Source: a virus
Taxonomy: Duplodnaviria; Heunggongvirae; Uroviricota; Caudoviricetes
Virus record (IMG/VR): IMGVR_UViG_3300027509_000001
Span: 64,001 to 128,000 of that record
Reading direction: 5' to 3' (one strand)
DNA: 64,000 nt
A model generated the notes under the pieces. It did no database searches, was not told the origin of the DNA, and saw only the letters and a program-made list of their open reading frames with translations. The translations under genes were made by a program, and so were the position numbers. Position 1 is the stretch's first letter; every line of letters starts with the position of its first letter. Positions 1 to 58,000 of the stretch are shown piece after piece.

Positions 1-811
1 GTACCGGTTTATATAATTTTTCAGTGAATGCTTTTACATCTAACCTGTGAGGTTCGTATAAATTATTCCAATGCATGCCTACATATCTATGAGCACATCC
101 CATACATTTTCCACATGGTAGTTTAGTGTAATCAGTAATATAATGACAACTGACGGTAGAATGAAGCTCGTTAAGTGGATATTCTTGCGATATATACCAA
201 TGTATAATCTCTCCTTTAGTTAACTCTTTAAACGGGCTCGTAATACGAATTCTCTTATCAGTTAAATTAGACAAATGTTTGCTTCCTTCACTAAAAAATA
301 ATTCAGATTTGTCGCCCCATAATTCTTTTACTTCTCCACCTATTGCAGCCATCCAAATTTCTCCTCGATCTGTTATATATTGAGATGCAATAATACTAAG
401 GATCCAGTTCCTACCGGGAAATATTTCTCCCCATTTTTCTTCTCCTGCCTGTTGCTTACTTTTTAAGTAAGAATAATCTTCAAAAATTACTGGAGTTTCA
501 AACTTAAGGTTGTTAATTGCTTCCTTTTCTACCGATGCATATGGATATCCATAATCAATATAAATAGCTTTAACGTTATCAAATTTTGTTAGAGCATATT
601 TATACGCGATATAGCTATCTATGCCTCCAGACATTAGTACTACAACTTCATAATCTTTTTTCGGTAAAAATATTGGTGCTTCTGGATGATTATAAGAATA
701 ATATATTAGATCATTTAATTCGGGAAACGAAGAATCTGACATTTCTCCTTTGTAATAAGATGCTTGAATGTCCAAGGCGTCAAATAATACTTTTCTTGTT
801 TTAGAATTCAT
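1..811 (-). CDS. queC: QueC-family 7-cyano-7-deazaguanine synthase-like protein (3' end runs off the window)
   Basis: Not in the ORF track; translated by hand from ATG at 811: MNSKTRKVLF...VVVLMSGGIDSYIAY...IYIDYGYPYASVEKEA...EIFPGRNWIL...SPFKELTK...TVSCHY...KPCGKCMGCAHR. Has the SGGxDS PP-loop, PGRN motif and C-terminal Zn Cys cluster of QueC. Confidence 0.85.
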   Translation of the reverse strand, partial: MNSKTRKVLFDALDIQASYYKGEMSDSSFPELNDLIYYSYNHPEAPIFLPKKDYEVVVLMSGGIDSYIAYKYALTKFDNVKAIYIDYGYPYASVEKEAINNLKFETPVIFEDYSYLKSKQQAGEEKWGEIFPGRNWILSIIASQYITDRGEIWMAAIGGEVKELWGDKSELFFSEGSKHLSNLTDKRIRITSPFKELTKGEIIHWYISQEYPLNELHSTVSCHYITDYTKLPCGKCMGCAHRYVGMHWNNLYEPHRLDVKAFTEKLYKPV

Positions 812-1178
812 GTCGTACGTTTTCTTTTTCAGTTAATTCGTGATTAATATGGACAACTTCTACCCACGGACACGCTTTGTTGATTTCTAATATTTGAATT
901 GGGTCATCTTCAAAAAATCTTTTGACTTCTATTCCCATCCCAAATAGAGTTTTTATAGTTCTAGCCTTATGCTCTCCGGACGATTTTCTCGTTTTTTTAA
1001 AAAATGGTCGTGAATTAAAGAAGATTTGGTTATGTATTCCTCTTGACTCTAAATATTTTAATGTTTCTGGCATTTCTTCATATGATCTGCCTGTAATAAT
1101 TACCGCATTGTTAGGAGGATTTATCCCGACGGTAATTACACCGTCGCAATCATATCCATGAATTATCCTTCGCTCCAT
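801..1178 (-). CDS. Small cap-less HAD-superfamily phosphatase
   Basis: YDCDGVI (DxDG motif I), IITGR (motif II), HKA, FFEDD (motif IV); overlaps ino1 stop by 1 bp and queC start by 11 bp. Confidence 0.75.
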   Translation of the reverse strand: MERRIIHGYDCDGVITVGINPPNNAVIITGRSYEEMPETLKYLESRGIHNQIFFNSRPFFKKTRKSSGEHKARTIKTLFGMGIEVKRFFEDDPIQILEINKACPWVEVVHINHELTEKENVRHEF

Positions 1179-2302
1179 TAATTTATTTTTTGTTCTACTG
1201 TAATATCTGTTAACTGCCTATTAGCTAAGGATTCGCATTCAGATTTTGCATCCATTGAAGACATTTGCAATGGCGGAGTTTTCTGCGTCCATGCTGACGG
1301 TCCTCTTAAGGATCCAACTATACCCATCTCTTGAGCAGTTTTCAAATATCTAATTGCATCAATAACCACTCCTGCCGAATTTGGAGAATCTTGTACACTT
1401 AATTTAGCGTCTAGAGTTACTGGCGCACCTCCGAATCCTTCCATTTCAATTCTAAAATTAGCAATTTTATTATCTTTATAATATGCAATGTAATCACTTG
1501 GTCCAGCGAATAAAAATGCTTCGTCTTTAATGTCGTGAATATCGTTCTGCGATCTAATTACATTTTCTTTACTAATCTTCTTTGATTGCAATCTGTCATT
1601 GTCAGTCATATTTAAGAAATCTGTGTTTCCACCAAAATTCTGTTGAATATGACAATTAACTTTATGGCCTCTCGAAAATGCTAATTCTTGCAGTACCTGT
1701 GATAAGATACTTGCTCCAAACTGAGATTTCATATCGTCACCAATAAGTGGTATACCAGCTTCAATAAACCGCTTTTCCCAAACTGGATTAGATGCAATAA
1801 ATACTGGTATACAGTTTAAGAACGGTATCTTCAATTCAATACATAATTCTGCATAGAATTCGGTTGCCTTTTGCGAACCTACTGGTAAATAATTAATTAA
1901 CATGTCTGGTTGGGCTTTTCTTATTGCCTCTTTTACTGCAATAGATAAGGCTGGATGATCTTCAGCTGCCCTAAATGCTTCATCTTCTGGATAATTTGCC
2001 ATTACGTCAGTTATACCATCCAATCTAGGACCTTGCACTACTTTAAAATCCCATGGTAAGTCTTTTTGAAATACCATTGTACAATTAGGCTTGGCCCAAA
2101 TTGCTTCATTTACTGGCTTATTAACTTTTCTCGAATCAACATCAATTGCTAATACTGGCTCTATGTCTGTCATTGTGTAACCACCTATATCTGGTGACAT
2201 GATACCTTCTGGTGAAGGATTGTGTTTGTAGTATTCAATGCCTTGCAATAATGACGATGCACAATTACCTAAGCCAATGATACCAATTCTAATTTTTTTC
2301 AT
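1178..2302 (-). CDS. ino1: Myo-inositol-1-phosphate synthase (bacterial/archaeal type)
   Basis: IGIIGLGNCASSLLQG Rossmann start, LINYLPVGSQKAT, FLNCIPVFIAS, IGDDMKSQFGA, GGNTDFLNM, KKISK, DSPNSAGVVIDAIR are characteristic MIPS motifs. Confidence 0.95.
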   Translation of the reverse strand: MKKIRIGIIGLGNCASSLLQGIEYYKHNPSPEGIMSPDIGGYTMTDIEPVLAIDVDSRKVNKPVNEAIWAKPNCTMVFQKDLPWDFKVVQGPRLDGITDVMANYPEDEAFRAAEDHPALSIAVKEAIRKAQPDMLINYLPVGSQKATEFYAELCIELKIPFLNCIPVFIASNPVWEKRFIEAGIPLIGDDMKSQFGASILSQVLQELAFSRGHKVNCHIQQNFGGNTDFLNMTDNDRLQSKKISKENVIRSQNDIHDIKDEAFLFAGPSDYIAYYKDNKIANFRIEMEGFGGAPVTLDAKLSVQDSPNSAGVVIDAIRYLKTAQEMGIVGSLRGPSAWTQKTPPLQMSSMDAKSECESLANRQLTDITVEQKIN

Positions 2303-2363
2303 AAAATTCTTAAATTTATTGATGGTCGGGTATTTTTACGTATAGCCGTTAATACGATTTAAT

Positions 2364-2993
2364 TTATTTCAAATTGTTTATGCAATTAAAAAATTCGTTT
2401 CTAGTGTCAATATTCTCCTTGAATCCCCCAGACAATTTAGATGTCATCATTGTGGAGTTATGCTTTATGCCTCTCACACATGCACACAAATGGTTGGCGG
2501 ATATTTTTACTGCTACTCCACCATTCCCTTCGCAAATATCGTTTATATAATTGTGTATTTGCATCGTAAGATTTTCTTGGACTTGTGGCCTTCGAGCGAA
2601 GTAATCTACAACTCTATTTAATTTAGATAATCCAATTACCTTTTTTCCTGGTAAATACGCAACATGAGCATGTCCTAAAAAAGAGAGGTGATGGTGAGAA
2701 CAGAAAGAGTGTACTGTGATTTTTCCTTGAAAGACCATGCCGTCGTAGCCATCTAGATTATCAAATGCTGTAATTTTTGGGGGTTCGTTATAACACCCCT
2801 TTGCCAAATCGTTAACAAATGATTTTGCTACCCTTCTTGGTGTATCTGATGAATTTGGGTCGTCTCGCCAATTAATTTTCAAAGCATCCATAAAACCTTC
2901 ATAGGCTTTTGCTGCTTCTTTTATCATTTTGGCTTGATCATCTTTAGAAAGGATTATATTGGAATTAGCGTATTCTAATAGTTTATTAGACAT
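2364..2993 (-). CDS. folE: GTP cyclohydrolase I (type IA)
   Basis: DTPRRVAK, SFCSHHHLSF, VIGLSKLNRVVDYFARRPQVQENLT, HLCACVRG; start moved to ATG at 2993 (MSNKLLEY) because the track's longer start overlaps the promoter. Confidence 0.95.
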   Translation of the reverse strand: MSNKLLEYANSNIILSKDDQAKMIKEAAKAYEGFMDALKINWRDDPNSSDTPRRVAKSFVNDLAKGCYNEPPKITAFDNLDGYDGMVFQGKITVHSFCSHHHLSFLGHAHVAYLPGKKVIGLSKLNRVVDYFARRPQVQENLTMQIHNYINDICEGNGGVAVKISANHLCACVRGIKHNSTMMTSKLSGGFKENIDTRNEFFNCINNLK

Positions 2994-3013
2994 ATAGTTA
3001 TTTTTGTTGATTA

Positions 3014-3045
3014 TAAATATAATAAAAATATTTGACAATACCAAA
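3014..3045 (-). promoter_or_regulatory. Bacteroidota sigma70-type promoter upstream of folE-ino1-HAD-queC
   Basis: Minus strand TTTG-N20-TATATTTA; it also overlaps a TATTTATA element (3012-3019). Confidence 0.6.
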
Positions 3046-3047
3046 TA

Positions 3048-3521
3048 TTACACATTATTTAATTCAGATAATTTCATGTTTTCAATAAATTCAGATATGT
3101 TAGGTATTACTTCTCTTCCATATCTATAATAGCCTTGCCCAGGTTGCCCCTTTAATCGTGTTGTTAGCCTACTTTCTATTCTAGCTCTAATTAGTTCACT
3201 GTCTGCATTAGATGGGCTCCAATCATTTAAATAAGACTGTGGGGCTGCTTCTAATACATCATCTAGAGATGTACCAGGATTAAATCCACGTCTAGTCATT
3301 TCTGTATTAACTTCTTTCAATCTTTTGCTTAAATAGATTAATTTATTTTTAAAGAAAGTCATGTGTCCTTTGCCAGTAGGGAAAACTTTAGGTATATCAC
3401 TTTTAATTTGCCAGTTATGTTGTTTTAACTGCCCGGTAATCATTGTTATTTCAACAGATTCTGCAATAAGATGCTGATCAGCTAAAAATTGGGGATGTAT
3501 TCCTACGTTTACGCGAGCCAT
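3048..3521 (-). CDS. denV: Pyrimidine-dimer DNA glycosylase/AP lyase (T4 endonuclease V family)
   Basis: MARVNVG...LADQHLIAESVE matches T4 DenV MTRIN...LADQHLMAEYRE, including the catalytic Glu; GKGHMTFFKNKL..L.KR...V..EM..RGF. Confidence 0.9.
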   Translation of the reverse strand: MARVNVGIHPQFLADQHLIAESVEITMITGQLKQHNWQIKSDIPKVFPTGKGHMTFFKNKLIYLSKRLKEVNTEMTRRGFNPGTSLDDVLEAAPQSYLNDWSPSNADSELIRARIESRLTTRLKGQPGQGYYRYGREVIPNISEFIENMKLSELNNV

Positions 3522-4692: not shown

Positions 4693-5115
4693 TTAAAAGT
4701 TTGTTTCTATTCTACCTGAAGGGTATATAATTATCAATTTTTTAGATTGTTTTTTTGCCTTTCTTAATGTCGCCCAAGTCCCACTTCTTAATAATTCAGA
4801 TTCTGTATTTGGTAATCCAATTAATATTTCACATTCGTCGATAATGTCTTGGTTTCTAACCATAAAAGGTTTGGCGTCATATTCAATATCAACTTTAAAA
4901 GAATTTGCTTGATTTGTAGAACCTGGTCTCCCTATTGTCTTATAACCCAAATCTCTAGCCATATTATTTGCCGTTTCATCTGCGCCACTACACATACCAG
5001 TTACCAACCATTTAAAATCTTCAGTTTCATAAAAATTAATTAACAATTCTTTTAACTCTTTTACCTGTTTTATTGTTAAAGATTTTCGCGTACCAGTTAT
5101 TCCTAATGTTTTCAT
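4693..5115 (-). CDS. SLOG-superfamily (DprA/YspA-like) nucleotide-binding protein
   Basis: LGITGTR, LVTGMCSGADETA, RNQDII, SGTWAT motifs. Confidence 0.75.
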   Translation of the reverse strand: MKTLGITGTRKSLTIKQVKELKELLINFYETEDFKWLVTGMCSGADETANNMARDLGYKTIGRPGSTNQANSFKVDIEYDAKPFMVRNQDIIDECEILIGLPNTESELLRSGTWATLRKAKKQSKKLIIIYPSGRIETNF

Positions 5116-6735: not shown

Positions 6736-8592
6736 TCAAACCCCTCTTAAATTATCGTATGCGATTATATGAGGCCTGCCTGTAAAATTATATCCTTCTC
6801 GAATACACATCTCAATAGTTGCTGGATATGTAAACAATAAAGATTGTCTATTATCTCCGGCCGGCATGACGTATGTTTTACTTTTTGGAATATTAAACTC
6901 TACCCTAAAGTCTTCTATTTCCTTTAATGCCTGTTCGCTTCCATCCCAGACTGGCTTGTAATGATAATCCTTAGATTGATAACCAGATATATTATGAAGA
7001 ATTGCTTCTTTATTCAACCGATATTTATTATGTTGTTTAATCATTTTCTCATCTACAATCTTTCCTTTAGGTGTTTTAATGCCTAACTTTGGTATTGTAT
7101 TTGAAAATTTAGGACTTAAACTATATAATCCTATTCTGCGGTCCAGTTCTAATTTATGGGAGCCTTCACTTTCAATTGTCATTACAATGCTGTTGGCAAT
7201 ACAGAAGTTATTTAATTCATTTACAATTTTCATATGCATTGTAGGCGAACCACCTGTTAGCATCATTTCTTTAATATATGGATATTTTTTGTATTCGTCA
7301 TATACATTCTGAATGCTAAATTTTCCTTTCTCTGGATGAATTGAAGTATACCAAGAATCGCAAAATCCGCCCTTTTCTCCGAACCAACAATTGTGAGAAA
7401 CTATAGATTGATGCCTACCAACTCTAACTAAATAATTATTGTATTCATTACAATGAAAATTATATGATTTATATAAAGACTTAGTTTTAATTCTCTTAAT
7501 AGATTCAATTTTAATACCATTTGTTAAAAATGTATTAACTTTCTTCAAAATAGTTTCATCATCGTGAGCAGCCATATTGATTGCCAAATATTTTGTATTT
7601 GGTAGACTTGATTTGGAATATATTTCATTTAATTCTTTATCATAATCATTCCAATTTGGTCTAAATGTTGAAACTTCTTCGCCTACTTCAATAAATTTAT
7701 TTTCGCCGTGAACCTTGAAATCTGGTACCTTTATTTTTCCCTTGCATTTCAAACTAAATTCTCCATCACCAGTAAACCATATTTGATCGTTCAGTCCTGC
7801 GGCTTTAATAATGTTCCAAAACCTCTTTTCGGGTCCGGACATGCCCTGTCCCATTTTCCATCCTAATCCATACCCGTTTTTATTTCTAGTTGAAATTGCT
7901 TTTTGAACAGTATTTGGGTTGAACATTGGATTATTCGCTTTCATATTGTCGGATATCCTGTCATATTTGTCTTTTATTTCAGTTTCCGATAATAAACCAT
8001 CCGGGTGTAACGTTCCTCTTTTTTCTAATCGTCTTTCATGCGTTAATTCCAATAATCCAGATTCGTCCCCAAAATGTCTCGTATTTGGATGCGAATGCGT
8101 TTTTTTAGCAATATCCGAATTAAACATTGGATTATATTTTCGCATGCGTCGAGAATTTCGCATTTTTCCAGAACAATGTACTAATTCATCAGTTTCTAGT
8201 AAATTTGCAGCCATTTTCCATCCACGAGTTGTAAGTACTGGATGCTCTGGTGTTACATTGAAATGTTGGTGGCCATTTTTTAATTTAACTACTACATATT
8301 CGCTTATGTCATTTATTTCTATGTCATTTATAGTGGTTTCTTGAATAGACGATGATAATTCATCCCAAGCTAAGATTCGATCTCCTACTTTTACATCCCA
8401 CATTTTTATACCTTTACCATTAGCATTAAATACTATTGGGTCCGCCCTGCCAGGAACTTTCACATGGCATCTATGTGTACATCCGGAAGTCCGAACTACG
8501 ATTGTGGGCATTCCTGCGCGGCTTCCTTCTCCCTGTACGGCTGGGTAAATTTCAACTATTGGCTGTATCTTGTTTAAATCCATTTTTTTCAT
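6736..8592 (-). CDS. queE: 7-carboxy-7-deazaguanine synthase (radical SAM) interrupted by an intein
   Basis: EIYPAVQGEG..AGMPTIVVRTSGC, after splicing CTHR-CWFGEKGGFCDSWYTS, LTGGSP, IESEGS, SLSPKF; about 258 aa mature. Confidence 0.9.
   Translation of the reverse strand: MKKMDLNKIQPIVEIYPAVQGEGSRAGMPTIVVRTSGCTHRCHVKVPGRADPIVFNANGKGIKMWDVKVGDRILAWDELSSSIQETTINDIEINDISEYVVVKLKNGHQHFNVTPEHPVLTTRGWKMAANLLETDELVHCSGKMRNSRRMRKYNPMFNSDIAKKTHSHPNTRHFGDESGLLELTHERRLEKRGTLHPDGLLSETEIKDKYDRISDNMKANNPMFNPNTVQKAISTRNKNGYGLGWKMGQGMSGPEKRFWNIIKAAGLNDQIWFTGDGEFSLKCKGKIKVPDFKVHGENKFIEVGEEVSTFRPNWNDYDKELNEIYSKSSLPNTKYLAINMAAHDDETILKKVNTFLTNGIKIESIKRIKTKSLYKSYNFHCNEYNNYLVRVGRHQSIVSHNCWFGEKGGFCDSWYTSIHPEKGKFSIQNVYDEYKKYPYIKEMMLTGGSPTMHMKIVNELNNFCIANSIVMTIESEGSHKLELDRRIGLYSLSPKFSNTIPKLGIKTPKGKIVDEKMIKQHNKYRLNKEAILHNISGYQSKDYHYKPVWDGSEQALKEIEDFRVEFNIPKSKTYVMPAGDNRQSLLFTYPATIEMCIREGYNFTGRPHIIAYDNLRGV
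7390..8469 (-). mobile_element. 360 aa intein in QueE with an internal Vsr/DUF559-like endonuclease
   Basis: Starts at Cys42 (CHVKVPG), block B VTPEHPVLT, ends IVSHN followed by Cys+1; internal SGPEKRF...VPDFKV..KFIEV nuclease-like segment and NPMFN repeats. Confidence 0.88.
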
Positions 8593-10143: not shown

Positions 10144-11883
10144 TTAGCCATCACATGCAGAGCATTCCAATAAACTTCTATTAAATATTTGGGCACCATT
10201 AGTACTATGTTGATAATATAAAGTCTTTATCCCTTCTTCATGTGCCAATTTAATTAAATTGTGAATATCATTTGCAGTTGCGTGTGGCGATATCATTAAA
10301 TTTAGGGACTGGCCCTGATCGATAAATTTTTGCCTTTGCGCTGCCAATTTAATTATATCTACTTGCGAAACCTCTTCATATGTTTTAAACACATCCTTTT
10401 CATGCTTCGTCAATTGTGTTATATGCTGAACGCTTCCATTATTTTCTAAAATACTTTGCCATATAGCTCGATGATTTAAATCTTTTTTAGTTAACAATTC
10501 GACTAATAATGGATTTTTATAGGTTGTTTGATTTTTTGCGTTCGCCTTTTCATGGTAATTGCTCTTTATAACCCCAATTCCTTGCGATACGCCGCCCATT
10601 ATTTCCCCTGACGACTTGTTTGGTGCCACGGCCAATCTACTTGTAAAACGCTCTCCATAGCCTTTAAGAATTTCTGGTTCTCCTAGTTCTTTAGCTAGTT
10701 CTTTAGATGCTTTTAAAGATTCTACATCCATTCTTTTAAAAATTTTATGGTTTACTTGATAAGATTCTATCGACCCCCATGAAATCATATTTTTTTGCAA
10801 ATAACTATGAAATCCTAATAAGCCCAAACCTACTGCGCGGTGTTTATTTGCAAAATTCATAGCCTTTTTAAACCCTGGTAAATTTGTGGCTAATTTAATA
10901 TATTCTTCCATTACTGCATCTAACATAATCATTCCCAACCAAACTAAATCTTTTGGCCAATCGTCATAATGCAATGCATTCAAAGATAATAAAGCACATG
11001 CAAATTCAGTGTCCTTGTCACAATACTCTATTACTTCTGTACAGATATTACTGGTGAAGATATGCATGTTGTTGTCTTTATAAACTTGAGCCTTGCCCTT
11101 ATTGCAATTATCTTCAAATAAAATATAAGGAAATCCCTTTTCAGATCTGCGTTTTATTAATTTTGCATATGCCGACATAAGTTTTGTATCGTCAGCAGTC
11201 CATTCATTAGGTGATATCATTTTCAATTCTTCCATTCTTTCCATAACTCCAGCTGGAATTGTAACACCAGTTGTAATATTTTGAATTGAATATCCTATAT
11301 CTTCTTTAGGATCACCGTCCATTCCAATGTTTAAAAAACTATCTATGTCCGCATGAAGTATTGAATTCCAAGCTGTTAAAAACCCACGTCTCATTCCACC
11401 TTGTGACATCTTTGCTATTTTAGAAGCGTAACTTTGGATCCAACTAACTTGACCAGGCGATGTACCAGATTTATCTTTGCCATATTTTTCACCAAGACCT
11501 CTAATAGGTGTAAAATTTTTGGCTGTGCCTGCACCGTTCTTTGCTAACATCGACATTTCATATTCACCATAAGCGATATCGTTCATCGTATCTTCTACCA
11601 CTCCAAAATTACAAGATATTGGCAATCCTTTATTTGTTCCAAAATTACAAGATATTGGCAATCCTTTATTTGTTCCAAAATTACTTAATATTGGAGATGA
11701 AAACGATATTAAATTTCGACTACAATAGTCGTATATTTTATCAGATATTCCCTTTCTTTTTGTTACTGTTTCAAAATGATCTGCTATTTGCCTATACCTC
11801 TGCTCTACAGTTATTTCATTTCCTATATATCCACGAGACAATGTTGTTCGTATATCGTCTGTTACCCAATAAAATTTTTTCAC
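10144..11883 (-). CDS. nrdA: Class Ia ribonucleotide reductase alpha subunit (no ATP cone)
   Basis: FSSPIL, GLPISC, SQGGMRRG, TSNICTEV (thiyl-radical Cys), GLGLLG, LAVAPNKSS, DQGQSLN, KTLYY, C-terminal CSACDG. Confidence 0.95.
   Translation of the reverse strand: MKKFYWVTDDIRTTLSRGYIGNEITVEQRYRQIADHFETVTKRKGISDKIYDYCSRNLISFSSPILSNFGTNKGLPISCNFGTNKGLPISCNFGVVEDTMNDIAYGEYEMSMLAKNGAGTAKNFTPIRGLGEKYGKDKSGTSPGQVSWIQSYASKIAKMSQGGMRRGFLTAWNSILHADIDSFLNIGMDGDPKEDIGYSIQNITTGVTIPAGVMERMEELKMISPNEWTADDTKLMSAYAKLIKRRSEKGFPYILFEDNCNKGKAQVYKDNNMHIFTSNICTEVIEYCDKDTEFACALLSLNALHYDDWPKDLVWLGMIMLDAVMEEYIKLATNLPGFKKAMNFANKHRAVGLGLLGFHSYLQKNMISWGSIESYQVNHKIFKRMDVESLKASKELAKELGEPEILKGYGERFTSRLAVAPNKSSGEIMGGVSQGIGVIKSNYHEKANAKNQTTYKNPLLVELLTKKDLNHRAIWQSILENNGSVQHITQLTKHEKDVFKTYEEVSQVDIIKLAAQRQKFIDQGQSLNLMISPHATANDIHNLIKLAHEEGIKTLYYQHSTNGAQIFNRSLLECSACDG
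11603..11684. repeat. Perfect 36 bp tandem duplication (about 2.3 copies) inside nrdA
   Basis: ccaaaattacaagatattggcaatcctttatttgtt at 11603 and 11639 plus ccaaaattac; duplicates NFGTNKGLPISC in frame. Confidence 0.95.
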
Positions 11884-11888
11884 TTATA

Positions 11889-12887
11889 TTATACCTTTTT
11901 TATGTTAATGTTAAAAACCGCTTCTATACTACAATCTCTTCCAGTTGAATAATCTGACAACCGTTGATCGAAGAAGTCTGCATCCATAGTTGATTTTAAT
12001 TTGATGTCCAAAAATTCTGATTTTTTAAGTAATTTTTCATCTAGGTCATACTCTGGATCGTATCCCATTAAACCTAAACTGTCATTCAATCGCAGTTTTA
12101 AATATTCTGCAATTTCATTCCTTGTCAAGAAATCTAATTCTCCATTCTCAAAAATCCAATCTAGTACTTTCATTTCTGCTCGATATGATTTCCTAATACC
12201 ACGTCTTATCTTTGCTTCCATTTCATCATCAAACCAATCAGGATTTTCTTTTTTTATGATACCAACTAATGTCGCTCCAAATTTACCATGAAGTATTTCT
12301 TCTCTAGCTGTAGAGTCTATTATTCTACTTATTGTTTTTAATGAATTTTTATATTTTGTAAATGACGATATAATTAAAAATTGACTGAAAAGAGATACAT
12401 TCTCCACTAATAAGGTAAATAGTATTAATGACTTAGTAAATTCTTTATTTGATCGAGATGACATTCCACTAATGTATCTCTTAAGATATTTTGTTCTGTC
12501 TGCAATTGCTGGTATATTCATTAACTTAGCAAACTCGCCCTCTAGTCCTAAAAATGATAATAGTTCAGAATATGCAAATGAATGAACCACTTCATTGCCA
12601 GCAAATGTTGATCCTACAAATGCCACCTCTGGTTTAGGCATTCTCATATCTATTCTTCCCCAGAATGTTTTAACTGAATTTTCAACGTGCGATATAGCTA
12701 ACATCGTCTTTTGAATTACCTCCTTCTCAAGATCAGTTAATATTGTTTTAAATTCAAGTTCATCTGCCTTTAAAGAAACCATATGTTCTTCAACAGTCCA
12801 TGGGGTATGTTGTATAGCTTTTGAAAATGGTATAAGCTCTGGATATTCGTATGGCTTTACTGTATCTCTTGGTTCAAATATATTCAT
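11889..12887 (-). CDS. nrdB: Ribonucleotide reductase beta subunit
   Basis: VKPYEYP, WTVEE, ENSVK, NEVVHSFAYS (Fe ligand, radical Tyr), ENVSLFSQF, REEILH, DFFDQR. Confidence 0.95.
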   Translation of the reverse strand: MNIFEPRDTVKPYEYPELIPFSKAIQHTPWTVEEHMVSLKADELEFKTILTDLEKEVIQKTMLAISHVENSVKTFWGRIDMRMPKPEVAFVGSTFAGNEVVHSFAYSELLSFLGLEGEFAKLMNIPAIADRTKYLKRYISGMSSRSNKEFTKSLILFTLLVENVSLFSQFLIISSFTKYKNSLKTISRIIDSTAREEILHGKFGATLVGIIKKENPDWFDDEMEAKIRRGIRKSYRAEMKVLDWIFENGELDFLTRNEIAEYLKLRLNDSLGLMGYDPEYDLDEKLLKKSEFLDIKLKSTMDADFFDQRLSDYSTGRDCSIEAVFNINIKKV

Positions 12888-52203: not shown

Positions 52204-55032
52204 TTAATTTCTTGAGTATCTGTCATATCCCAAGATGAAATTAACAGGGGCAAATAATCCAGTATATTTATATAAATTATTATTCCATTCAAATACTACT
52301 CCTTCAGTTGGTTGCATATTTTGTGGTCCGCCTATTGTATTTATTCTGGCTATTTCCCTTTGGATTTTAGGATCAGAAGTGTCTTCGCTTAAGCGATTTA
52401 TATTATCCATAACATTTTGTTTAGAACCTTCTCCAAACGCCCCTAGGAACCCTGTACAATTTGATAAATATTCATTGGCTAATTCTAAAAATATTGGTTC
52501 AATTGAATCTTTTAATTTATGCATTATAGCACTAATCATCGTTTTATCCATTTCCGATATTAATGGGGTATATTCTCCAAAATTCTTATTAGTTAATCTC
52601 GTTGATTTATCTTCGTATACCCATCTATTAACCAATGCCTGTTTAAGCATGTTATTAAGAGGTTTGAGCGATTCTTCTACTACTGCCTTCATATAGTATT
52701 CATAATATTCTCCAAGTGTATTAGAGTCGCTTAAATTAGCGTCTTTCATTTTAGAATTTACTAAAGATTCATAATATGATAATCTTTCAGTTAAATTATC
52801 TGGGGTAATATATTCAATAACATTTGGAGTAATAATTTCATAATGCATTCCAAGTGAATTATATTTCGGTATTTGAATTGGAGTATTTGATATCATATTC
52901 CATGATGCATCATACTCTACTAAACCTAAAGCCACTATATATGGTTTGGTATATTCAATAACGTTTTGCGTTGAAGGATTTAATATTTCGACATTTAAAT
53001 ATTTACTGCCATTCTCAAATAGATTACTATCTTTAAAAGCATGTTCAAGTTGAAGTGCTGCGCTTTTAAATGAGTTTTGCAACCAGTCCCTATCTGAAAA
53101 TTTGTCTGCTAACTCTTCTATTGTCATGGGGGTTTTCAAAGTACTTTTATTTCTGGCTGCATATAATTTATTCTCTTTAATCGTTACCATTAAATTCTGT
53201 CCATCTAGTTTTTCGTACGTCTTTGCTTCTAAGTTACCAGACAAAGAACTAGAAAACAATTCTTTAATTTTACCAAAAGTTAATGATAAATTATTATATG
53301 GATGATTTAATCTTCCAAATGCTCCTCCCATGAGTAATAGATTTTGACTGTTATTAATATTTTCTTTAAATTCAACGTTTGGGTATGTATTGCACAAAGT
53401 TAACAATTTTTTAATCAACAAACTAATTTTTAACACTTTTATTTTATCTGTAGGGCTTTTGTCTTGTCTAGCTACTACTCGGTGATGACCATCCAAAATA
53501 TAATAATCTTTGGAGCATATAATAGGTTTATTAAACACATCGTTGCCAGAATCTGAGATTGATACTACCTTATCAACATTAATTTCTTTTTGTGTTAATT
53601 TTAATTGACTTATTTCTATTTCTTCTATTTTATATTCTATTTTTTCAGTGTCTAACCACTCTTTAAATTTATCTAAATCTTCAATTTGAGGCATTTTAAT
53701 TCTTTTAATACCAAGAGATTGTTTGACATTAATAGTATCTTCTACATAAATCTTAGGCGTTGCTGAACTAAAATTCTTTTTTCGCATTATAGTTTTCGCA
53801 ATTAAATCATATTCCAATGTATTTGGGTCCCATTCAATTACAAATGGTATATTTAATGCACTAGATTTATCAACTAAAACTGCTTCGTCGCCGGGGTCTA
53901 ACCTGTCTAATTGACCTTTTTTGTTTTTTAAAGCCTTTTTAAATAAATTTCGAATTTCCTCTATATCTATTTCTGGAGTATTTCGGTTATCGTTTGACCT
54001 ATCTAAAAAATGTGTCTTCATAAGGTTAATGTCAAGTCCTATGCTCCCATATATTTGATCTAAATATTTTTCAACATTATAAAGTTGACTTCTTGATATC
54101 TTTTCAACAAGTTGATATCCACTGTTATTGGATAATTTAGTAACATGATCTGACCATTTTAGTTCCGAATCAATTTTTGATACAAATTTGTCATAATCAG
54201 TACCCGATCCTGTATTATTATCTCCAGTTGGAAAGTAAGATGTTGTTGTTGGTGGGCCATGAGGATAATCAGTTTCTGGGGCATGCGCTTCTATAGAATC
54301 TATATCCCCTATTAACCAATTCATAACTTTCCAATTTGCGACATTTTTTGATTTATTGTCAATCGATATGTAATACGATTTTAAATCATTGTAAAATGCC
54401 CTTGGTCCGTCATCTGGCGCTGTATAATTTCCTTCTACTATATTCCTAGCTATTTTTTCTTGTATAGCAAATTTTTTTTTAATTATATTATGTGCTAATT
54501 CTTCGTACCAACCAAATATTTCTAAAAATTTATCTTTAGTAATTCCAGGCAAATTTTCCCTAATATAAGTTCCTGAATAATTTTCTACTGATTCTATTTG
54601 TATATGAGGAGCCACAATAACGTATCCATGTTTGTCGTAAGATTCCAATTTAATATCTTCTGAATATGGCTGGAAATAAGACAATGAACCATCTGCCTTT
54701 GTCCATTTGAATCGAGAAGAGTCTTTTTCTCCTATCATAAAAATAGCAGATATATTTGGATCATATTTTTCTAAAAATGTTGGACGATATGGAATCCTCT
54801 CTTCTTTTATATAATTTGAATTAATTCCGTATCCATTCATGAATACTGCTTTTTCTTCGAATGCAAATGGAGAATTTGGAAATTCAATTTTATTTGACGT
54901 AACTAAGTACGAATTTTCTTTTCCAAATTTATTCTGCATCCATTTAAATGCCTCATTATGATGTTTACCAAACAATTGGAAACGTCCTGGATATATAGCG
55001 ACTATTTTATTATTTTTATTCATTAGGTACAA
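52204..55032 (-). CDS. Multidomain protein: HIGH-type nucleotidyltransferase + unknown domains + ParB/Srx-like + ATP-dependent ligase-like
   Basis: YPGRFQLFGKHH...SGTYIR; HFLDRSND..N...KTIMRK; LKLTQ...PII...ILDGHHR; YEKLDGQN...ARNK...EGVVF...YKYTG (KxDG, EG and K motifs). Confidence 0.7.
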   Translation of the reverse strand: MYLMNKNNKIVAIYPGRFQLFGKHHNEAFKWMQNKFGKENSYLVTSNKIEFPNSPFAFEEKAVFMNGYGINSNYIKEERIPYRPTFLEKYDPNISAIFMIGEKDSSRFKWTKADGSLSYFQPYSEDIKLESYDKHGYVIVAPHIQIESVENYSGTYIRENLPGITKDKFLEIFGWYEELAHNIIKKKFAIQEKIARNIVEGNYTAPDDGPRAFYNDLKSYYISIDNKSKNVANWKVMNWLIGDIDSIEAHAPETDYPHGPPTTTSYFPTGDNNTGSGTDYDKFVSKIDSELKWSDHVTKLSNNSGYQLVEKISRSQLYNVEKYLDQIYGSIGLDINLMKTHFLDRSNDNRNTPEIDIEEIRNLFKKALKNKKGQLDRLDPGDEAVLVDKSSALNIPFVIEWDPNTLEYDLIAKTIMRKKNFSSATPKIYVEDTINVKQSLGIKRIKMPQIEDLDKFKEWLDTEKIEYKIEEIEISQLKLTQKEINVDKVVSISDSGNDVFNKPIICSKDYYILDGHHRVVARQDKSPTDKIKVLKISLLIKKLLTLCNTYPNVEFKENINNSQNLLLMGGAFGRLNHPYNNLSLTFGKIKELFSSSLSGNLEAKTYEKLDGQNLMVTIKENKLYAARNKSTLKTPMTIEELADKFSDRDWLQNSFKSAALQLEHAFKDSNLFENGSKYLNVEILNPSTQNVIEYTKPYIVALGLVEYDASWNMISNTPIQIPKYNSLGMHYEIITPNVIEYITPDNLTERLSYYESLVNSKMKDANLSDSNTLGEYYEYYMKAVVEESLKPLNNMLKQALVNRWVYEDKSTRLTNKNFGEYTPLISEMDKTMISAIMHKLKDSIEPIFLELANEYLSNCTGFLGAFGEGSKQNVMDNINRLSEDTSDPKIQREIARINTIGGPQNMQPTEGVVFEWNNNLYKYTGLFAPVNFILGYDRYSRN

Positions 55033-55063
55033 TTTAATTTTTTTTATTTAAAAATCCAAACTC

Positions 55064-58000
55064 TTAAGAAGTTTTTATTATTGTTAATCCACCACCATTC
55101 TCTGCGGATCCTGAAATGGTGTCAGCGGTTGAACCCGACCAAGTTATTTTTATTTCGTCTTCAGCTGATAATTCCACCATATGCTTTAATTTCATATATT
55201 TTGATCCATTGATAGAATCGGCCGATTTAATTGTTGTAAAACCTGCGCCAGTGTCTACTTTTATGTTGTATGTAGTATCTCCTAAAAATGTTCCGAATGC
55301 ATCAAAGTCAATTAAATAATCGCCATCAAATGGAACTACATGAACATCTCCATTTAAAAATGATATATTTGCTTCTGTTCCAGTTGATGATTGCGATGAC
55401 GTATCGTACCCATCATTAAATAAAGATGATCCTACAATTCTAAGAATAGATGGCTCTCTAACATATAACCTATTTTGTCCCAGTCCAGTCCAATTCCAAA
55501 CGGTTATGGCGGCCCATACGGCTGTAGAAGTTGGAGTATAAGTATATGTATGTATTTCCCAATCTGTGTCTACTGCGCCATTTTCATACCAATTTGTTTT
55601 AACTCTTGTATACCCTTGCACTTCCACTGGCTTATCTCCATTACCAAGTCCAACTTTATTTGCCGGAAGCTCAGAGTCATATTCTGCCATTCTTAAATAA
55701 ACACCATTTCCAGAGGTTATATTTGATTTTATTGCGATTGATATTTTCCATGAATTGACACTATCTTCGTTAACTCTAAATACTGGAAATGATGCACAAT
55801 GTTTATTATCAGTGGAACCATTAATTGTTAATGCCCTTTCATTTACATCGTAATATACATTCGTATATACAGTGGTTTGAAATGGTAAAACATCATATGG
55901 CAATGTAATAAGTCCAATTGGCGCTCTAGAGAACGAGAACGTAACTGGATTATTTGCTGTAGTGGGTATAGTTGAATTAAAATCTTCTACAAAATTAATT
56001 AACTCTAAACCCCATGTGTATTTATTGACTCCTTGATTAACTACTTCATCTATCTTATATTTATACCATCTGTCTTCAGATACTTTGAACATTATTTCGT
56101 CACCTTCTTGAACTTGATGATAATAATTTGATCTATTGACGCCATCTGTATCATTTACATATAAAAGTAATCCATCGGCTAATGAAAAATTATTTGCGTC
56201 ACCACTAGTAGTGACAGTCCTGTCTGTCAATAATGCATATCTTCCTTCCCCAGAGGCTTCGCCAGTTGTATCTAAATCGTCGTATGTAAACGAAATACTA
56301 AATCCGCTAATAGCGTCAGGACCCGAGCTTCCATCTGCTCCGTTAGTTCCATTTATACCGTCGGTTCCGTCCTCTCCTACAAATTTTGACCATTCATAAT
56401 CAGCGGCAGTTGTTCCTTCAGTACCAGTAGATTTATTATATGCTATTCCTATATATTTTCTTGTTCCTGGATCTCCGGTTGTGAAATTTGTTGCACCTGC
56501 TATGTCGTCTGCATATGCTATCCATGTATATTTTTCTGGGGCGTCGGCACCGTCGTTTCCATCCGTTCCATTAGTGCCATCTGTTCCGTCTGACCCTTTG
56601 ATTAATTTCCACGTATAGTCTGCTTCAGTTGATGACTCAGTTAATCCAACATATACACCAAGATAATCTCCTGGTGTTGATCCATTGCTTGAAGTGAAAT
56701 TTGCTCCATTGTCATCTGAATATCTAATCCATATACTATTTCCATCGGCGCCATCGTTTCCATCATTACCCTCGTCTCCAGCCAACGAAGCAACCCATTG
56801 TTCTTCAGTACCAACAAATCCATTTAGAACCGCCAATTCATACGCGGATTTTCCTGCTGTTTGTACGTCATCTAATGCAATGTCACCATTAAAATTTAAC
56901 CCATATATCTGAGATTCTTGTGTGGCCTTTTTATTATTTTCATTTAAATAATTTATTTGGAGCGACAATTCGTTGTCCTTTTTAAACGAACTAATTGGTA
57001 TTTTTAAATTAACATGATTTGAAGAATATCCCAATTCATTACGAGGACTTAATCTTAAATTAGAAAGTGACCAATTACTAGTATTTCTGGATTGGAATTT
57101 AATTTTAATATTTGCATCTTCTAATAATTTAAAATACAATTTAATATTTTTTAACAATGCACCCGTCGAATGTTGAATAGAACCTATATAAGTCCAGCCC
57201 GCTATTTTTAAAGGAGCTACCATATTCCTAGGATATTCAATATCAACTTGTACATCAGTCGATGAAACATATACATCAACTTGAGATGTTTTTGGATTTG
57301 GGTCTAGATCATATGCATCGAATTCTATTTTATATTCTGTATTTTTATGTCCCTCAATGGCAAATTGGTCTTTTAATGAAAGAGTCCAAGAATCTAATGC
57401 CTTTTCTTCTGTATTTTTAAATGTAACACCAGTAGGAAATTTTTCTGACATTACATGGCTTGAATTGGATTCATGGGCTATATCCCAATAAGTATTATAA
57501 TCTTCAATTGTTGCTAGATCCCATAAGGGCTTTTCTTCTATTTGCAATTTAGTCGATATAAGACTTTGAGGATCGACTAATAAATTTTGCGAAGGTATTT
57601 TAAATTTTCCTAAATTTACAGATTCTCCAAATGAACCATATAATTTATATGACAATTCAACTTGAGTGACATTACCAGCTAATGGTTCAATGTCTAATAA
57701 ATCAATTTCTATAAAGGACTCTTCCGATCTTTCTTCTAGTGTTACATCTGATCTGTAATACGTTATTTCGTAACTTCCATGGGTTAGCTTTGAATAATTT
57801 CGAGTCGATTTTTCTCCACGAGTATTTATGTATTCTAGCTCATATGTAAAAGGCTTATCTAATATAAAAGTTTTAGTATCTAAAATATCTATAACTCCAG
57901 CTTCAAAAACAATTCCAGTTGGTGATATATAATCTGGATGAAAATCTGGAAACTCCAACGACTGTTCAATGTTACTTAATGATATCCTTGCACCTATCCA

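Follow-up and report, generated by a model that had tools for sequence, protein, structure and literature searches.

The DNA analysed here, referred to as the window, is a stretch of 64,000 bases (64001-128000) from the 188,518-bp viral record IMGVR_UViG_3300027509_000001, which has direct terminal repeats, is rated 100% complete and belongs to a large, T4-like phage. Nearly all window genes lie on the minus strand, and the genes of concern are those at its left end, where folE, a gene for inositol-3-phosphate synthase (MIPS), a gene for a small HAD-like protein and a QueC-like gene follow one another on that strand. A first-pass annotation had proposed these four genes, a 1-bp overlap of the MIPS gene (ino1) with the HAD gene, an 11-bp overlap of the HAD gene with the QueC-like gene, and a queE gene 4 kb away; all four genes were recovered at the same coordinates, both overlaps were confirmed directly in the sequence, and queE lies 3.7 kb past folE. 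The genes are as follows (aa, amino acids).

2-811, minus strand: QueC-like PP-loop ATPase (PF06508), truncated by the window start (full gene at genome positions 63936-64811, 291 aa)
801-1178, minus strand: predicted capless (C0) HAD-fold phosphatase of 125 aa, with four HAD motifs
1178-2302, minus strand: inositol-3-phosphate synthase (MIPS, Ino1 type; PF01658, 4e-24)
2364-2993, minus strand: FolE, GTP cyclohydrolase I, the first step to 7-deazaguanine (PF01227, 2e-49)
6736-8592, minus strand: QueE, 7-carboxy-7-deazaguanine synthase, split by a HINT-type intein (phrog_2076, 1.9e-37)

The MIPS covers the full PF01658 profile (positions 1-107; 85.3 bits, cut-off 27), and its residues 3-357 align with Mycobacterium tuberculosis Ino1 (1gr0) at 284 bits; the motifs GxGNCASS, GDDxKSQxGA, GGNxDFLN, SKKISK, and DSPNSAG are kept in the Ino1 alignment. 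Among solved relatives, Ari2 (6k96), which makes a five-membered cyclitol, ranks second at 170 bits. The protein matches phrog_33138 at 1.9e-151, and named Bacteroidota MIPS (Chitinophagaceae, Pedobacter, and Olivibacter; the names being automatic annotation) share 60-62% identity with it. It fails the NCBIfam model TIGR03450 (311.7 vs. 638 bits), which is specific to the actinobacterial branch (mycothiol-type INO1). Homology supports an orthodox enzyme, expected to convert glucose-6-phosphate to inositol-3-phosphate. MIPS relatives of 64-65% identity also occur without the HAD gene (L013:10001-13285 and L015:10001-13090), beside a gene for a 646-aa radical SAM protein; the two contigs carry PARP-like, Pol X-ligase, and tRNA-synthetase genes, and seem to come from large viruses of another kind.

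The MIPS stop codon (TAA, 1180-1178) and the HAD start codon (ATG, 1178-1176) share base 1178. The HAD protein has no Pfam or NCBIfam match, and its single PHROG match is to PHROG 415 (polynucleotide kinase; 1.4e-6). Its catalytic residues (D10 and D12 of the DxDGV motif, T29/S32, K71, and E90-D91-D92) show no variation among 30 relatives. Profile-based comparison with solved structures gave nothing meaningful, and it was a fold search with the protein model (pLDDT 94) that gave matches, the best being the T4 Pnkp 3'-phosphatase, Nir2 LNS2, and the lipin Pah2 (TM-score ~0.6, E around 1e-3). From its motifs and model, the 125-aa protein is predicted to be a Rossmannoid, capless HAD phosphatase. 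C0 HADs typically act on large substrates.

The QueC-like gene starts with an ATG at 811, and the HAD gene ends at 801, hence the 11-bp overlap. The QueC-like protein passes the family-level model PF06508 (65.5 bits, cut-off 22) and fails the QueC equivalog TIGR00364 (51.8 bits vs. a cut-off of 150.3). Both the PP-loop motif SGGxDS (S61, G62, G63, D65, and S66) and a C-terminal four-cysteine zinc site (C222, C233, C236, and C239) are invariant in the same nine relatives. Its model is about equally near to Cap9 (9nto; TM-score 0.74, by target) and to Bacillus subtilis QueC (3bl5; 0.70), with sequence similarity to Cap9 being weak and restricted to the C-terminal part. The protein is a genuine but divergent member of the QueC family; sequence and fold comparisons did not separate an ordinary QueC from a conjugating enzyme.

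On the other side of the QueC-like gene, left of the window, a 422-aa open reading frame overlaps it by 23 bp. This reading frame itself has no Pfam or PHROG match. By the Pfam TGT model the genome lacks DpdA, which proved to be a false negative; only an alignment of its family, which numbers 662 relatives among 1.8 billion representative proteins searched, allowed the 422-aa protein to be placed. The TGT signature GDSGGFQ is invariant in the family alignment (D84, S85, G86, G87, and Q89), PF01702 matches 18 of 55 family members (best E-value 3.7e-11), and hhalign links the family, with 97.4% probability, to gp042, a TGT-like protein of Stenotrophomonas phage Moby. Against NF041059 (DpdA) the protein reaches 18.5 bits (cut-off 200), and assignment to the DpdA3 type of Cellulophaga phage phiST was rejected, with an hhalign probability of only 19%. 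Homology supports a transglycosylase of the DpdA/TGT superfamily, which by family would swap guanine in DNA for deazaguanine. A further ~9 kb beyond this DpdA-like gene lies the gene for QueD (genome positions 54190-54648); the first-pass annotation had suggested looking for dpdA and queD to the left of the window, and both are present there. Flanking QueD on the minus strand are two genes for HGPRT-like phosphoribosyltransferases (PRTs) (genome positions 54649-55176 and 55461-56120; L002:10649-11176 and 11461-12120), which, along with a PRT-like gene located before the QueC-like gene in a clade of relatives that lacks MIPS, hint that a deazapurine base is converted to a nucleotide.

The remaining deazaguanine enzymes are encoded within the window. 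The mechanical reading frame of folE (2364-3044) begins at an upstream TTG, and the likely start is the ATG at 2993; the protein is 51.5% identical to FolE of phiST and scores 181 bits against the NCBIfam FolE models, slightly below the 202-bit cut-off. QueE aligns with phiST QueE over residues 4-51 and 399-618, on either side of an intein of ~350 aa (HINT models PF07591/PF01079 match residues 53-148). By sequence, the phage therefore encodes the full set of FolE, QueD, QueE, a QueC-family enzyme, and a DpdA-family transglycosylase, as do the known systems by which 7-deazaguanines are introduced into phage DNA (PMC6884629, PMC10516641).

The distribution of the MIPS and HAD genes was examined in viral contigs. 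A single-sequence scan with MIPS gave no matches; a scan with the HAD alignment succeeded instead, and yielded 368 HAD-bearing contigs, of which the best 80 loci were analysed by clustering the neighbouring genes and scanning cluster representatives to obtain architectures. In all 80 loci the MIPS gene lies directly upstream of the HAD gene: in phages the two form an obligate pair. In 76 of these loci, a DNA-modification family is encoded no more than two genes away. The neighbourhoods fall into three architectures. The first (~44 loci) combines a 5-hmdU DNA kinase homologue and a family designated fam3, often with a thymidylate-synthase-like gene and dUTPase; the second (~20 loci) has a TET/JBP oxygenase, an amino-acid:DNA transferase, and P-loop kinase3; and the third (~10 loci) has QueC-like, DpdA, and FolE genes. 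In 60 of 78 loci, the product of the gene directly after the cassette is an activating enzyme that uses ATP (5-hmdU DNA kinase, 35; P-loop kinase3, 17; QueC-like, 8), and the gene directly before it is of transferase type in 49 of 72 (fam3, 27; amino-acid:DNA transferase, 19; DpdA, 3). The fam3 protein (e.g., L064:7633-8703), which in pyrimidine-type clusters is encoded upstream of the cassette more often than any other, lacks a match in Pfam; its invariant GDSH motif is typical of SGNH/GDSL-type esterases, and makes it a candidate transferase.

Seen from the QueC-like protein, the association is similar, with MIPS directly upstream in 17 of 22 viral relatives. The MIPS-less exceptions are one clade of three lineages and four loci (L106, L108, L112, and L115) and the outlier L119; a PRT-like gene fills the MIPS slot in three of the four clade loci (L106, L108, and L112). 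Among cultured phages, those of Stenotrophomonas Menderavirus (such as Moby, IME-SM1, YB07, and Ps15), Caulobacter Cr30, and Ralstonia RP13 encode homologues of both MIPS and the small HAD. The gene order in Moby (folE, MIPS, HAD, QueC-like, TGT-like, and QueE) is that of the window phage block, in a phage whose host belongs to another phylum, and the block of MIPS, HAD, QueC-like, and DpdA genes is kept in distant phages that include Moby and viral contigs. In Cr30 and RP13, neither FolE nor QueC was found in the genome; in Cr30 an amino-acid:DNA transferase (PF18724, 1.3e-52) is encoded two genes upstream of MIPS, and RP13 has a homologue. The linkage of ino1 to deazaguanine genes that the first-pass annotation had drawn thus holds as synteny but not as a specific tie, as most copies lie in pyrimidine (5-hmdU/5-hmC type) clusters; together with the lack of FolE and QueC in Cr30 and RP13, this ties the pair to DNA hypermodification as a whole. 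A search of the window phage genome for a separate module of pyrimidine hypermodification was negative: PF18724 is absent, and blastp found no match to the HMUDK, ADDT, PNK3, TET, fam3, or thymidylate-synthase-like families. The deazaguanine module is therefore the only possible partner of the cassette in this genome.

In a maximum-likelihood tree of 85 MIPS sequences, the three cluster contexts are thoroughly interspersed, and the deazaguanine label requires at least 13 changes among 20 rows. This argues that the association arose repeatedly rather than as one inherited accident; there have been many exchanges, whether of the cassette or of the genes around it, with adjacency kept. Five of the six named Bacteroidota MIPS form a clade inside phage MIPS diversity, beside kinase-type phage cassettes (support 99/97), which suggests gene exchange between phages and Bacteroidota.

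The left end of the window is best explained as the core of a gene cluster by which the phage modifies its DNA with 7-deazaguanine, and into which a conserved inositol cassette is integrated. By family, FolE, QueD, and QueE would make 7-carboxy-7-deazaguanine (CDG), and the DpdA-like transglycosylase would exchange guanine in DNA for a deazaguanine. The MIPS and HAD would supply a cyclitol, either as free myo-inositol or as an inositol phosphate that is dephosphorylated later, possibly on DNA; judging from the gene association, the cyclitol would end up in the modified base. We consider the chances evenly balanced that MIPS and HAD work as part of DNA hypermodification. The more specific proposal, that the DNA carries a 7-deazaguanine with a cyclitol on the 7-substituent (for example, an inositol ester of CDG made by the QueC-like enzyme from MIPS- and HAD-derived inositol), is tentative, and falls somewhat short of an even chance.

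QueC adenylates the carboxylate of CDG. In the proposed route the QueC-like enzyme would likewise adenylate this carboxylate, and a cyclitol hydroxyl would attack in place of ammonia, giving the inositol ester of CDG; the ester might form before DpdA inserts the base, or afterwards on DNA. The QueC-like enzyme is left as the candidate conjugator because no separate inositol transferase is conserved in deazaguanine-type clusters. The first-pass annotation had envisaged a transferase outside the window as another option, but no inositol transferase was identified. The QueC acyl-adenylate route that it also put forward makes chemical sense, but this ester route is the least certain part of the scheme, and as an inferred step we regard it as unlikely in this exact form. 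In related clusters, genes for SAM methyltransferases (Methyltransf_11, Methyltransf_24, and FkbM) lie between MIPS and the HAD or QueC-like gene (L101:7605-8201, L104:6983-7597, L109:6945-7607, and L110:7384-8007), and a GT1/GT4 glycosyltransferase gene lies beside the QueC-like or DpdA gene (L100:8789-10186 and L114:5066-6394); the window phage has neither, and these genes in its relatives possibly fit the tailoring of a small cyclitol.

Several points weigh against a cyclitol-bearing base. Everything beyond the assignment of enzyme families is guilt by association, and the 80 loci were picked as the best matches to the window HAD and are no random sample. Many carriers, including cultured ones, appear to be T4-like with clustered replication and nucleotide genes, such that adjacency could partly reflect a shared plastic region. 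The QueC-like gene is the sole QueC-family gene in the genome, and so may encode an ordinary QueC making ADG or preQ0; one clade of its family is found in clusters without MIPS; and no dedicated inositol transferase was found in the deazaguanine-type clusters. The MIPS, being 60% identical to cellular enzymes, could serve a host-like inositol metabolism. An ester to a secondary alcohol would also be an unusual and labile decoration of DNA.

By the main alternative, the two modules are independent: a known base (dPreQ0, dADG, or similar) would be made via an ordinary QueC, inositol would serve a purpose other than DNA (host lipid, surface, or osmolyte metabolism, or small-molecule counter-defence), and the shared early plastic region of T4-like genomes would explain the position of the genes. 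An orthodox MIPS whose Bacteroidota relatives nest in a phage clade is in keeping with this, as are the pair in Cr30 and RP13 without FolE or QueC, the single QueC-family gene, the related clade that works without MIPS, and the lack of an identified inositol transferase in the window cluster. It is less easily reconciled with a pair that adjoins DNA-modification genes of three unrelated chemistries in 76 of 80 loci, that usually sits between a transferase-type gene (49 of 72) and an activating enzyme (60 of 78), and whose context has switched many times on the MIPS tree. The gene overlaps of 1, 11, and 23 bp also argue against independence, as does the capless HAD, with the T4 polynucleotide 3'-phosphatase as its nearest solved relative. 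For the lipid route, the annotation had asked whether ino1 travels with CDP-alcohol phosphotransferases: PF01066 has no match in the complete genomes of the window phage, Moby, Cr30, and RP13, whereas 13 of 14 control genomes were positive. A lipid route via a CDP-alcohol phosphotransferase of the phage itself was rejected on these four genomes, although host enzymes could still use phage-made inositol. On balance, independence of the two modules seems rather unlikely, yet it deserves serious weight.

A variant of the cyclitol-bearing base, which we regard as improbable, has the cyclitol joined as inositol phosphate, with the HAD dephosphorylating it on DNA or editing a phosphorylated intermediate, and with free inositol never made. 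That the HAD is capless, and that its nearest solved relative acts on polynucleotide ends, makes removal of the phosphate after attachment, on DNA, possible; its length of 125 aa leaves no cap domain, the solved folds nearest to it belong to proteins with polynucleotide or membrane-lipid substrates (T4 Pnkp and Nir2/lipin), and Pnk is the only PHROG it matches. Set against this, the fold matches are modest (TM-score ~0.6, E around 1e-3), none of the results here points to the phosphate that would be the target, and there are also small capless HADs known to use small phosphomonoesters. Last, the MIPS-like enzyme might make another carbocycle (a five-membered cyclitol phosphate, like Ari2 in aristeromycin synthesis) and, with the HGPRT-like enzymes, lead to a carbocyclic or otherwise unusual deazapurine nucleotide, as the rank of 6k96 (170 bits), the two genes flanking QueD, and the PRT-like gene before the QueC-like gene in the MIPS-less clade might suggest, but we consider this very improbable, given that MIPS is far closer to true Ino1 (284 vs. 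170 bits) and shares a clade with named cellular MIPS (automatic annotation), and that the PRT genes lie apart from MIPS and are present where it is absent.

Two further features lie directly upstream of folE.

3010-3045, minus strand: promoter-like site in the 54 bp that separate folE from the denV-like gene (consensus matches only)
3048-3521, minus strand: denV-like pyrimidine-dimer DNA glycosylase (PF03013, 2.3e-13; phrog_1183, 4e-29)

The gap is the only one upstream of folE, and it contains a sigma70-like site (TTGTCA-17-TATAAT, 11/12, at 3038-3010) as well as a Bacteroidota-type site (TTTG-N20-TATATTT, at 3045-3015; pattern TTTG..TAnnTTT). Neither pattern has a regional frequency above that in shuffled sequence, and because such matches are no commoner than in shuffles the promoter is only plausible. 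Of the host-type promoter noted earlier before folE, the good consensus match stands, but there is no enrichment over shuffles to go with it. Members of the denV-like family are also found by QueC-type clusters at four further viral loci (L107, L110, L111, and L118); the gene is a neighbour of the cluster, and at most a candidate member of it. Between folE and QueE, a 140-aa protein (window positions 4693-5115, minus strand) matches phrog_289 (4e-11) and, weakly, a DprA-type Rossmann fold (PF02481, 0.005).

The groups known to be attached in phage DNA hypermodification are sugars, amino acids, polyamines, and small one-carbon groups. The earlier statement that no inositol modification of DNA has been described agrees with our literature searches, which found none; nor did searches for inositol with deazaguanine or hypermodification find a description of the cassette. 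The paper on phage Ps15 lists que genes and a MIPS side by side, and treats the MIPS as a stray bacterial acquisition. If the proposal is true, the modified guanine would be the first cyclitol-bearing nucleobase and a new chemical class on DNA, and the MIPS and HAD genes would be a portable "nucleophile supply" cassette common to purine and pyrimidine hypermodification systems. The comparative pattern suggests a design rule, in which a base-activating enzyme and a transferase are combined with an exchangeable supply cassette for the attached group. A cyclitol on DNA would bear on restriction evasion, sequencing artefacts, and DNA-labelling enzymes. The proposal is testable in culture, since Stenotrophomonas Menderavirus phages carry the deazaguanine form of the block, while its pyrimidine form is present in Caulobacter Cr30 and Ralstonia RP13.

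Known phage 7-deazaguanine systems comprise FolE, QueD, QueE, and QueC, or variants of these, together with DpdA (Hutinet et al., 2019, PMC6884629; Cui et al., 2023, PMC10516641). The window phage resembles them in its full gene set, in FolE, QueE, and QueD that are 51-55% identical to those of phiST, and in a TGT/DpdA gene that adjoins the QueC-family gene. It differs in having MIPS and HAD genes wedged between folE and the QueC-like gene, in a QueC-like protein that fails the QueC equivalog, and in a DpdA-like protein that is not DpdA3 and whose relatives in cultured phages are all hypothetical proteins encoded by jumbo phages. Cui et al. (2023; PMC10516641) list eight deazaguanine bases, none of them with a cyclitol, and inositol is unmentioned there.

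Cellular inositol synthesis (for Bacteroidota inositol lipids and actinobacterial mycothiol) likewise uses an orthodox MIPS followed by a phosphatase, although the phosphatase of the window phage is a 125-aa capless HAD rather than a member of the IMPase family, its neighbours are DNA-modification genes, and no lipid-route gene accompanies it. For the proposed conjugation, the nearest precedent is Cap9, a QueC-like enzyme of type IV CBASS that adenylates CDG but uses a nucleophile other than ammonia as the acyl acceptor (bioRxiv 10.1101/2025.04.06.647259); there, in bacterial defence, the nucleophile is the N-terminal amine of a protein, whereas in the window phage it would be a cyclitol hydroxyl. 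The groups appended in thymidine hypermodification are reported to be amino acids, polyamines, and sugars (PMC5889632, PMC8989533), and literature searches found no cyclitol. The genes of this pathway (5-hmdU DNA kinase and amino-acid:DNA transferase; Lee et al., 2018, PMC5889632; 2021, PMC8989533) are absent from the window phage, in which the activator would be a PP-loop adenylating enzyme acting on the carboxylate of a purine analogue. The logic is the same, in that an ATP-activated base substituent is replaced by a small nucleophile, and in most phages that carry the MIPS and HAD genes, these lie in just such thymidine clusters, between the transferase and the kinase.

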